A stretch of DNA of 64,000 bases from Escherichia coli (lineage in GTDB: Bacteria > Pseudomonadota > Gammaproteobacteria > Enterobacterales > Enterobacteriaceae): assembly GCF_003018255.1 (NCBI RefSeq), contig NZ_CP027440.1. One strand, written 5' to 3'. Positions 37,401 to 40,400 of this stretch are shown in pieces. The position numbers are program-made. How positions within the stretch are numbered: position 1 is the stretch's first letter; each line of letters starts with the position of its first letter.

Positions 37401-40400
37401 TTTTTTCTATTTCTTTAATCACCAAGTCATGAGCTAGGTGTCTGTCATGAGCCAGATATACTTTTGAAAAACAACCCTGTTCTTCTAGATCACGAATCCA
37501 TTCGAATGCTACATCAGCTCTTTTGTATGGAGTCAGCATCCCCTTACCTCCGCAGATAGTGCAGCCAAAACAGCTTCATTTGTTTCAGTTGTAAAACCAG
37601 AATTATCGATTCCATTTATATTACGGTGTGACTTCAATATTTCTTTATACTCGATCTCTGTTAGGTTCAATGATGACTTCATACCAGATTTTCTAATGGT
37701 GTAATATCTTCTTACATCACTGCTTGAAAATGCTTCTTGAATAACAGCTTCTATATAAAGGCGGTCAATGCTAAGATTATCAGAGTTTGATTCAGTAACG
37801 CGTATAGCAGCTAATTCAACATTATATAAATTAAGAATGTCGAGGATGTTATTTCGCACATACTTTAATTTTTCTGGTGTGTCTAAGGTCGAAGGTATTT
37901 TAATAACATCAACACATTTGAGTGCAGACTCATCAGTGCAATATACAACAAAAGATGTAACTTTGGGCGCCGCCCTAACACCTAGTATTCTCATTTTTTA
38001 TATCCCATTTTAGAATCAGGCTGCGTTTCTGCAGCCTCTCTCATCACCCAAATGTCTAATCAGGCTATTATTGATTATCCATGTTTCCTGTATGTTTGCG
38101 GCATGCTCCCAATAACTTTCCCGAAGATAAACACCCGGTTCATCTCGTCTTTCTCGATTGGGTCCCACGGTGAGTAGCTCTTGTTATCAGAGATAACCAG
38201 CAGTTTATCCTTCATCATTTGCAGGCGCTTAACATGGGCTGTGTCGTCATACAGAAACGCATAGATACCATCACCGTCGAAAGATTTAACAGTGATATCA
38301 ACGAACAGAAGATCACCTGGTTCGATCGTTCCTGACATGCTGTCACCGCGTACGTTAATGATGCGGATATTTTCTGCCTTCCTGCCATCGAACATGTGAC
38401 GAGCATCGTCAAACGAGTACTCAACCGAGCGTAGAACTTCTACAAACTCACGGTTGATGACTCCCGGCCCGGCACTCACTTCTATATCAAGAACGTCAAT
38501 CTTGAAGTATTTGGGATGGTTGGCAGCAGGCTTCCCTGATTGTTGACCGTCATTTCTCATCGGGCCTATGCCTGATGAGAGCCACTCTGTTCGAACACCC
38601 AATGCATTAGCTATTTCAACAATTTTTGTTGAGCCGCGTGCGTTGCCGCTTGTCAGTCTCCAGATTGTGGGTTGAGCTACGCCAGACGCCTTTGCAAGAG
38701 CGCCTTGAGACATTCCAGATTGTTCCATCGCTAGGTTTAAGCGATCAGCAAGAGTTTCTTTTTTCATAAGTTTTAATTTATACGCTTGCGTATTGATGGT
38801 CAAAACACGTTTTGCTATTGATTGGGTTAATACGCATTGCTATTATCCATTCATTGTAATACCAATAGGAATTGATAATGACAAATCAAACCATTCAACT
38901 CGCAATCAGTATTACAGGTAGCCAAAAACGACTGGCAGATCTATGCGGTGTAGCCCAGCCCACTGTTTGGCGTTGGCTACACGGTGGGGGAATTGATGCC
39001 CGCTATGTAATGAAAATTGTCTCAGCCACTGGTGGAAAGATTAAACCAGCAGATATTCGTCCCGACCTTGCACCATTGTTTAACGCGAGTAATTCTGCCG
39101 CCTAAACTGCGGCGTTAACTGATAAGGCAATGATTATGCAACCACTTACATACCAACAGACTAGCGGATTTAGCCCGACTGCGGTGATAAATCGTTCTCA
39201 AATAAAACAGGTGCCAGGCCACGAAAAAATCCGTGATGCCGTTCGCGCCTGGTCGGCTGCAGATAATCAGGATGTTGTTGCCGCACTCATTGTGAATGAG
39301 TATCGGGAGCAGGGCGGCGGCACCATCGATTTCCCTGATGATGTCAGCCGTGCACGCCAGAAGCTGTTCCGCTTCCTCGATAACAAATTCGATTCTGAAA
39401 AATACCGAAATAACGTGCGTGAACTGACCCCGGCAATTCTGGCGGTACTACCGCTGGAATATCGCGGCCACCTGGTTGAGCAGGATAGCTTCATGGCTCG
39501 GCTGGCTGAAATGGAAAAGGAACTCTGTGAGGCAAAGCAGGCGGTCATTCTCAACGCACCACGCCACCAGAAACTGAAGGAGATGAGTGAAGGCATTGTG
39601 TCGATGTTTCGAGTGGACCCGGATCTGGCTGGTCCATTGATGGCGATGGTCACCACCATGCTGGGGGCAATATGACAGGTTCAAAAATGGCGAAAGTCGG
39701 TCTGCGGGAACAGAACCGACTTTCAGGTGCAAATCGTAACACACTCATTGCGGGAGGAATTATGGCAAACACTGCTGAGATATTCAATTTTCCAGTGCCG
39801 GATGCGGCACAAAAGGAGCCGCGCGTGGCAGATCTCGATGATGGTTATACGCGCATTGCAAATGAGTTGCTGGAAGCTGTGATGCTGGCCGGATTAACAC
39901 AGCACCAGCTTCTGGTCTTCCTGGCTGTCATGCGCAAAACATATGGCTTTAATAAAAAACTGGATTGGGTGAGCAACGAGCAACTGTCCGGATTGACCGG
40001 GATATTACCGCACAAGTGTTCTGCTGCAAAAAGTGTTCTGGTAAAGCGTGGGATTTTGATTCAGAGCGGGCGGAATATCGGTATTAATAATGTGGTCAGT
40101 GAATGGTCAACATTACCCGAATCAGGTAAGAAAAATAAAGTTTACCTGAAAGAGGTAAATTTACCTGAATCAGGTAAGAAAAGTTTACCCAAATCAGGTA
40201 AAGGCGTTTACCCGAATCAGGTAAACACAAAAGACAAACTAACAAAAGACAATATAAAACCTTTTTCGTCCGAGAATTCTGGCGAATCCTCTGACCAACC
40301 AGAAAACGATCTTCCTGTGGTGAAACCAGATGCTGCAATTCAGAGCGGCAGCAAGTGGGGGACAGCAGAAGACCTGACCGCCGCAGAGTGGATGTTTGAC

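Follow-up and report, generated by a model that had tools for sequence, protein, structure and literature searches.

In a 64,000-nucleotide stretch of the Escherichia coli contig NZ_CP027440.1 (hereafter, the window), a lambdoid prophage carries an O-like replication initiator gene whose coding sequence contains five 17-bp palindromic repeats (iterons) followed by an A-rich tract. We regard this element as very probably a bidirectional (theta) replication origin of the prophage, similar to ori-lambda and situated inside the initiator gene, in which the iterons belong to a cognate module acquired by recombination. The parts of the origin and of the two replication genes are located as follows.

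39762 to 40691, plus strand: O-like replication initiator gene, 309 residues (PF04492, PHROG 277, list of open reading frames)
39762 to 40106, plus strand: O N-terminal origin-binding domain (residues 1–115), a predicted winged helix-turn-helix (HTH) and non-lambda specificity module
40113 to 40129: iteron 1, TTACCCGAATCAGGTAA, an additional copy on the upstream side, 29 bp ahead of iteron 2, to which four-iteron origins have no counterpart
40142 to 40158: iteron 2, TTACCTGAAAGAGGTAA, with the most divergent centre, positional counterpart of lambda iteron 1
40161 to 40177: iteron 3, TTACCTGAATCAGGTAA, a perfect 8+1+8 palindrome (the one reverse-strand mismatch is the central base), counterpart of lambda iteron 2
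40185 to 40201: iteron 4, TTACCCAAATCAGGTAA, counterpart of lambda iteron 3
40208 to 40224: iteron 5, TTACCCGAATCAGGTAA, counterpart of lambda iteron 4, adjoined by the A-rich tract
40225 to 40262, plus strand: A-rich tract, ACACAAAAGACAAACTAACAAAAGACAATATAAAACCT, presumably the DNA-unwinding element; the mosaic junction to lambda-type sequence also falls here
40263 to 40691, plus strand: O C-terminal domain of lambda type, with 87–100% DNA identity to lambda per 30-column window
40688 to 41389, plus strand: lambda-type P gene, DnaB helicase loader, 233 residues (PF06992 Phage_lambda_P, E = 8e-62)

A reading of the sequence made before any database search (the sequence-only reading) had placed five 17-bp TTACC-type iterons at 40113–40260 within the O coding sequence, and both a repeat finder and a pattern scan bore this out. 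The repeat finder returned one five-copy family with starts at 40113, 40142, 40161, 40185 and 40208, all of them within the O-like open reading frame, and each copy is a palindrome of the form TTACC-N7-GGTAA with a 7-bp centre. When the degenerate 17-mer TTACCYRAATCAGGTAA was searched for with up to three mismatches, it matched at these five sites only in the whole 64-kb window, giving 10 matches (both strands, since each site is palindromic) against 0.30 expected, a number reached in none of 100 shuffles. Copies 1, 3, 4 and 5 fit the 17-mer exactly and copy 2 has two central mismatches; each of the ten half-sites is TTACC or GGTAA without any deviation. The start-to-start spacing is 29/19/24/23 bp; the element thus has the direct repeats of about 17–19 bp, at least three to four in number, with internal dyad symmetry and about two helical turns apart, that mark lambdoid origins of the O type. 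The only match in an Rfam scan of 37.5–42.5 kb was to rliD, on the minus strand across the iterons; it scored 16 bits where the gathering threshold is 50 (E = 0.31), and we took this sub-threshold match for a chance hit caused by the repeats.

The A-rich tract, which had also been noticed in the sequence-only reading, lies directly to the right of iteron 5 and has 24 A in its 38 bases, a GC content of 0.25–0.30 and an AT skew of up to 0.73. With a stability in the lowest 1.7% of the window's 40-mers, it corresponds to the AT-rich region of about 40 bp that borders the last iteron on its right in lambdoid O-type origins. We aligned seven origins (those of the window, the Klebsiella phages GZ7 and KO-TP1, P22, SEN34, HK97 and lambda), and the stretch CACAAAAGACA...ACAAAAGA after the last iteron was invariant in all seven. 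In the same alignment, iterons 2–5 of the window fall over lambda ITN1–4, and iteron 1 with its spacer appears as an insertion present in the window, GZ7 and KO-TP1 only, 29 bp upstream in all three.

The gene around the iterons encodes a Phage_rep_O-family initiator, and a helicase loader gene comes next. Its product matches PF04492 Phage_rep_O over residues 21–115 (E = 2e-33) and PHROG 277 along its full length (1e-162), and the counterparts of the downstream gene in matching phage records are labelled 'replication protein P'. The true start of O is more likely the ATG at 39762 than that at 39672, because the former has a GGAGG 5 nt upstream and gives an alignment with lambda O from residue 1 (MANTAEIFNF against MTNTAKILNF). 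Automatic annotation (e.g. WP_000147901 in NZ_CP033850) begins at ATG 39672 and yields 339 residues, compared with the 309 residues from ATG 39762, and both versions are abundant in protein databases.

Within this gene, sequence unlike lambda gives way to sequence nearly identical to it. In a global alignment with lambda O, DNA identity from 39762 to about 40228 is mostly 50–60% (33–83% per 30-column block), then rises to 77% at 40228, 87% at 40258 and 90–100% thereafter, and from SSENSGESSDQ onwards the protein differs from lambda O at three residues. Residues 1–168, on the other hand, are 40% identical to lambda O, 52% to SEN34, 54% to P22 gp18 and 80% to the O protein of GZ7. In lambda, the O C-terminal domain contacts P. 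Since identity to lambda is about 50% to the left of 40228–40260 and 90–100% to the right, the alignment indicates that a non-lambda origin-recognition module is joined at about this position to a lambda P-interaction domain. The iterons (40113–40224) accordingly lie between residue 115 and the lambda-type C-terminal half (from about 40263). The A-rich tract coincides with the points at which modules diverge in the other origins as well: to its right, the window and SEN34 are lambda-type, GZ7 and KO-TP1 have another C-terminus, and P22 and HK97 have a third.

The recognition domain and the iterons are inherited together. GZ7 and KO-TP1, which share about 80% N-terminal identity with the window, have the same five iterons at the same spacing, joined to a different O C-terminus and a different loader. 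To place the iterons among known types, we read the equivalent region in nine other O types.

lambda and epsilon34: TCCCT-N7-AGGGA, 4 copies
933W: TCCCT-N7-AGGGA, 6 copies
phi80 and mEp237: TTCCC-N6-GGGAA, 4 copies
P22: TTACC-N5/6-GGTAA, 4 copies
HK97 and a Yersinia phage: TTAGC-N7-GCTAA, 4 copies
SEN34: TTAGC-N7-GCTAA-like, 4 copies
PhiR12_2: GTCAC-N7-GTGAC, 4 copies
window, GZ7 and KO-TP1: TTACC-N7-GGTAA, 5 copies

The spacing of the core set is shared: iterons 2–5 of the window are spaced 19/24/23 bp and those of lambda 20/24/23 bp, and the last four of 933W, as well as the iterons of P22 and HK97, have the same or very nearly the same values. The count of four that the sequence-only reading gave for lambda agrees with the annotation of NC_001416, in which four iterons lie at 39034–39118 inside O. 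Its proposal that the window differs from lambda also held, both in sequence (TTACC against TCCCT) and in number (five against four), and the comparison that it suggested with phi80 likewise separates the two (TTACC-N7-GGTAA in five copies against TTCCC-N6-GGGAA in four).

The origin of the window resembles that of lambda in its position between the N- and C-terminal domains of the initiator, in its palindromic 5-N7-5 iterons with a core spacing of 19–20/24/23 bp, in the A-rich tract that starts with CACAAAAGACA after the last iteron, and in the nearly identical O C-terminal domain and P within the gene order cro, cII-like, O, P, ren. It differs from lambda in having five iterons, TTACC/GGTAA half-sites and an O N-terminal domain of 40% identity, as well as a cII-like gene of the phi80/YdaT type; the half-sites and the N-terminal domain set it apart from the lambda O-specificity group as a whole (lambda, 434, 21, 933W and epsilon34). 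The P22 gene 18 origin (BK000583, rep_origin 32840–32984) is the closest experimentally studied relative by its N-terminal domain (54% identity) and has TTACC/GGTAA half-sites, nearly the same A-rich tract and four iterons at lambda-like spacing. However, the P22 centres are 1–2 bp shorter (N5–N6 against N7), gp18 has an unrelated C-terminal domain and is partnered by the DnaB-type helicase gp12 rather than by lambda P, so that the N7 spacer, the five copies and the lambda P partner place the window outside the P22 gene 18 group. The phi80 gene 15 origin (JX871397) has four palindromic sites within the gene, followed as in the window by an AT-rich stretch and the segment SSENS(D/G)ESSD, and the type of the cII-like gene is also shared, but it differs in its half-sites (TTCCC/GGGAA) and its spacing (about 20/21/21 bp).

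Two further comparisons concern the extra copy. In 933W and P27, as in the window, extra iterons stand on the side away from the A-rich tract and match an in-frame extension of the O linker (PMC7466680), whereas the iterons and O are there of lambda type and two extra copies are spaced 20/19 bp, compared with one at 29 bp in the window. The Klebsiella phages GZ7, KO-TP1 and ST11-VIM1phi8.2 match the window in iteron type, number (five) and spacing (29/19/24/23 bp), with an O N-terminal domain about 80% identical. Their iterons 1 and 2 are more degenerate, however, and they have a different O C-terminus, with a DnaC/DnaI-type loader in GZ7. A hybrid of the same design was seen in PhiR12_2 (locus L096, at about 1055–1140), where another N-terminal domain and four GTCAC-N7-GTGAC iterons meet a lambda-identical O C-terminus and P, again at the A-rich tract; this site therefore seems to be a recurrent exchange point.

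A divergent O N-terminal domain coupled to a near-identical C-terminal half is the classical pattern of O/ori specificity modules. The sequence-only reading had assigned the window to a distinct O-specificity group on the grounds of the extra copy and the sequence differences. The half-site sequence and the divergent N-terminal domain (40% identity to lambda O) uphold the assignment. The count of five does not, because 933W has six lambda-type iterons, and five copies alone therefore do not imply a new specificity; the purified O proteins of lambda, P27 and 933W bind four- and six-iteron origin templates (PMC7466680). The comparison thus supports a specificity particular to this module, which would be unlike those of lambda and phi80 and nearest to that of P22. 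The stronger proposition, that the TTACC-N7-GGTAA five-iteron module is an experimentally uncharacterised class orthogonal to lambda, phi80 and P22 in which the conserved extra iteron is essential like the weakly bound extra iterons of the Stx phages, seems to us evenly balanced. Phage 82 is said to have five repeats, reportedly described by Moore, Denniston and Blattner in 1981, and the module of the window could prove to be the classical phage 82 type.

The N-terminal domain offers a candidate reader for the half-sites. An AlphaFold2 model of O residues 1–168, computed from a nine-sequence alignment, has a core at residues 27–115 with a predicted local distance difference test (pLDDT) score of 74–91 and an H-H-b-H-H-b-b topology. 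Across the nine O types, the predicted second HTH helix (residues 83–95) co-varies with the half-site, a pattern that we infer from nine sequences:

TTACC half-site: HKCSAAKS in the window and GZ7, TKCSTAKN in P22
TTAGC half-site: THVCAAKR in HK97, THVCTAKN in the Yersinia phage
TCCCT half-site: KRCNEAKL in lambda
GTCAC half-site: QKVNKAKN in PhiR12_2
TTCCC half-site: THVSDALK in phi80

Experiments on the four-iteron lambda origin and on six-iteron Stx origins have demonstrated the O-iteron mechanism (PMC7466680), and from lambda biochemistry we would expect the following sequence of events at the window origin. Dimers of the O-like protein would bind each TTACC-N7-GGTAA palindrome via the N-terminal winged-helix domain, and the bound iterons would fold into an O-some, with the adjacent A-rich tract at 40225–40262 becoming destabilised on supercoiled DNA. 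The lambda-type O C-terminal domain would then recruit the lambda-type P–DnaB complex, leading to loading of the host helicase. Iterons 2–5 would serve as the conserved core set, and iteron 1 would be a lineage-specific extra that probably raises the local occupancy by O or makes the complex more stable. The N-terminal domain and the iterons would form one cognate module, recombined at the A-rich tract onto the lambda P-interaction module.

Conservation among close relatives was examined in 80 loci from IMG/VR with an N-terminal domain 97–100% identical to that of the window. Five iterons were present in 77 of the 80, and among these 77 loci the variable positions numbered 2 of 50 in the half-sites, 6 of 35 in the centres, and 12 of 64 in the spacers and flanks, with 1 of 36 for the A-rich tract.

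Several points weigh against reading the element as a lambda-like origin with five working sites. The half-sites varied less than the centres and spacers together (2/50 against 18/99; Fisher p = 0.02), but few variable sites underlie this test and coding constraint acts as a confounder, and we treat it as supportive only. Within 38–42.5 kb, other stretches are less stable than the A-rich tract: the six least stable windows listed there lie outside the O and P genes, around the immunity region and emrE/ybcK. A Foldseek search of the PDB with the model gave weak matches (best E = 5e-3), among those listed mostly winged-HTH regulators (CRP/FNR, MarR and CodY), which we take as consistent with a winged-helix fold; a PDB sequence search with O gave no match. 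By analogy with the Stx origins, iteron 1 is probably an auxiliary site. Finally, a literature search with the exact iterons returned no paper, and we found no binding or replication experiment on this allele.

The status of iteron 1 deserves separate consideration, since iterons 2–5 alone might form the working origin and iteron 1 might be a neutral duplication. Iteron 1 with its spacer is 95% alike to iteron 3 with its spacer over 22 nt, as would be expected from a recent duplication, and in the Klebsiella relatives it is degenerate (with a GGTAC half-site). The Stx origins speak to both sides: among their six iterons, strong binding in vitro is confined to the four closest to the AT-rich region, yet the weakly bound extra copies are nevertheless needed for plasmid establishment and replication (PMC7466680). 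The position of iteron 1 is kept in the E. coli and Klebsiella relatives, which argues that it is not neutral; the 29-bp distance is the same in E. coli and in the Klebsiella phages with O N-terminal domains about 80% identical, so the copy predates their split, and its half-sites are invariant in 77/77 five-iteron loci. On balance, we think a neutral iteron 1 unlikely.

It is also conceivable, but in our view improbable, that the origin is a relic of a defective prophage and does not fire in this host. The module is indeed located in a chromosomal prophage, and it occurs in nearly half of E. coli genomes, so that many such prophages must be cryptic. Three of the 80 IMG/VR loci are length variants: in two, a 23-bp deletion leaves four iterons, and in the third, iterons 2–3 are duplicated (43 bp), which makes seven. 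The O gene is frameshifted in all three after this gain or loss (loci L027, L054 and L064). Unequal recombination between iterons thus occurs and inactivates O in some prophages; since all of the four- and seven-iteron variants have a frameshifted O, we rejected iteron copy number as natural functional variation. In the window, by contrast, the O (309 residues) and P (233 residues) reading frames are intact, the iteron block is 98.5–100% identical to that of isolated phages, and variation is lowest in the half-sites and the A-rich tract, all of which speaks against a relic.

The iterons were said in the sequence-only reading to encode a repetitive PESGKK linker. This is true of copies 1, 3 and 4, which are in frame 0 and encode LPESGKK, LPESGKK and LPKSGK, and 'linker' is a fair description, because residues 119–168 are encoded by the iterons and the A-rich tract and are disordered in the model (pLDDT below 50, without secondary structure). 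It does not hold for copies 2 and 5, which are read in another frame as VYLKEVN and VYPNQVN. Since the iterons are read in two frames and all half-sites are kept, their conservation is at the level of the DNA rather than the peptide. That the repeats are a by-product of a low-complexity linker peptide and have no role as DNA sites is therefore hardly credible, even though three of the five copies encode LP(E/K)SGK(K) and the repeat region is predicted to be disordered: the two copies in the other frame encode unrelated peptides and still keep both half-sites, every copy is palindromic as peptide repetition does not demand, each O type compared has its own palindromic repeat set at the same place, the lambda-like spacing recurs wherever measured except in phi80, and the equivalent lambda repeats are proven O-binding sites (PMC7466680).

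The origin-bearing prophage begins with an integrase gene (31056–32198, minus strand) right after icd (29692–30942). One further feature bears on transcription of the origin.

38818 to 38846, plus strand: pR-like promoter from a consensus scan, TTGATT-17-TATTAT with a TG extension, 5' of the cro-like gene, the cII-like gene, O and P

This promoter would be expected to drive transcription through the origin. On the opposite strand, an apparent antisense RNA similar to oop and M3 lies between the cII-like gene and O (39676–39787, minus strand). It has a promoter-like sequence, TTGAAT-17-CATAAT with a TG, running from 39787 to 39759 and overlapping the start of O, and a strong hairpin at 39693–39725 followed by a T-run (fold energy −24.6 kcal/mol, z = −3.7). 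Over its 5' part it can be aligned with lambda oop and with the M3 RNA of phi80, and the candidate at 39676–39787 had no Rfam match.

The cII position (39130–39675) is occupied by a 181-residue phi80-type protein (YdaT_toxin domain, PHROG 163 'CII-like'), not by a lambda-type CII, and the cro position (38872–39105) by a YdaS-type HTH protein; the immunity/regulatory module is therefore phi80/Rac-like, and the O C-terminal domain, P and ren are lambda-like. At 36493–37994 on the minus strand, with the early-left genes on one side and the cI-like repressor on the other, a Ser/Thr protein kinase of eukaryotic type and 348 residues is encoded (Pfam Pkinase, E = 1e-46; PADLOC mad6/PD-T4-6 models down to 8e-49), overlapped by a 153-residue open reading frame that had no family match. 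The kinase resembles the Stk exclusion kinase of 933W in position and type. Directly after ren, AT-rich DNA at 41702–43869 carries emrE (SMR multidrug efflux) and a ybcK-type large serine recombinase, and this cargo is shared with 4A7, an isolated phage, and with the DLP12-type prophage of FDAARGOS_497.

FDAARGOS_497 has an identical O-P-ren-emrE-ybcK block in a DLP12-type prophage at argU, and its otherwise similar prophage lacks the kinase. We considered a DLP12-type element at argU for the window as well and rejected it, as no tRNA gene was found within the window and the integrase adjoins icd. Because the same block stands at argU in FDAARGOS_497 and at icd in the window, the module is shared by prophages at different sites. 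The rest of the window includes, in its first 18 kb (1–17900), the end of a second lambdoid prophage adjoining potB, with tail genes that include open reading frames of 859 and 1245 residues and a collagen-repeat protein at 14855–16513. Between the two prophages, positions 18080–30942 hold what by size and order of the open reading frames are apparently the host genes potBA to icd (potB and icd confirmed).

The module is widespread. Among 5,426 complete E. coli genomes, 2,452 (~45%) have a match to the region, the exact O protein is found on at least 1,000 contigs, and the iteron block occurs in 15 deposited coliphages at 98.5–100% identity over 203 bp with no change in length. Carriers include 4A7 (Bievrevirus), Lambda_4C10, Turner, Perceval, 1W, 3W and several PhiR phages, and 4A7, Turner, Perceval and the PhiR series are isolated plaque-forming phages with an identical module. 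In the records that were listed or inspected, no iteron or rep_origin feature was present under the match, only a coding sequence for O or a replication protein. Ten records of a plasmid collection matched, mostly large and chromosome-like (one of 4.9 Mb), with Klebsiella records of 28–42 kb that are phage-sized, and these ten gave no sign of a dedicated plasmid replicon.

The element is thus a real and ordinary lambdoid origin, of a known kind and very common, with an iteron type that is apparently uncharacterised experimentally; the allele is probably among the commonest coliphage origin types. It challenges no current model. Its value is modest and lies in being a clean natural case of a recognition domain and its iterons inherited as a unit and swapped at the A-rich tract onto helicase-loading modules, and annotating the module would improve prophage annotation. 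Lambda-derived plasmids would thereby gain another orthogonal O/ori pair, one of use also in studying how winged-helix initiators read half-sites. If the module is indeed a class of its own, it would be a ready-made natural hybrid, because it keeps the lambda P-interaction domain, for mapping how a few residues of the recognition helix set the choice of half-site, and it could account for the replication of several lambdoid prophages within one cell without mutual titration of their initiators.

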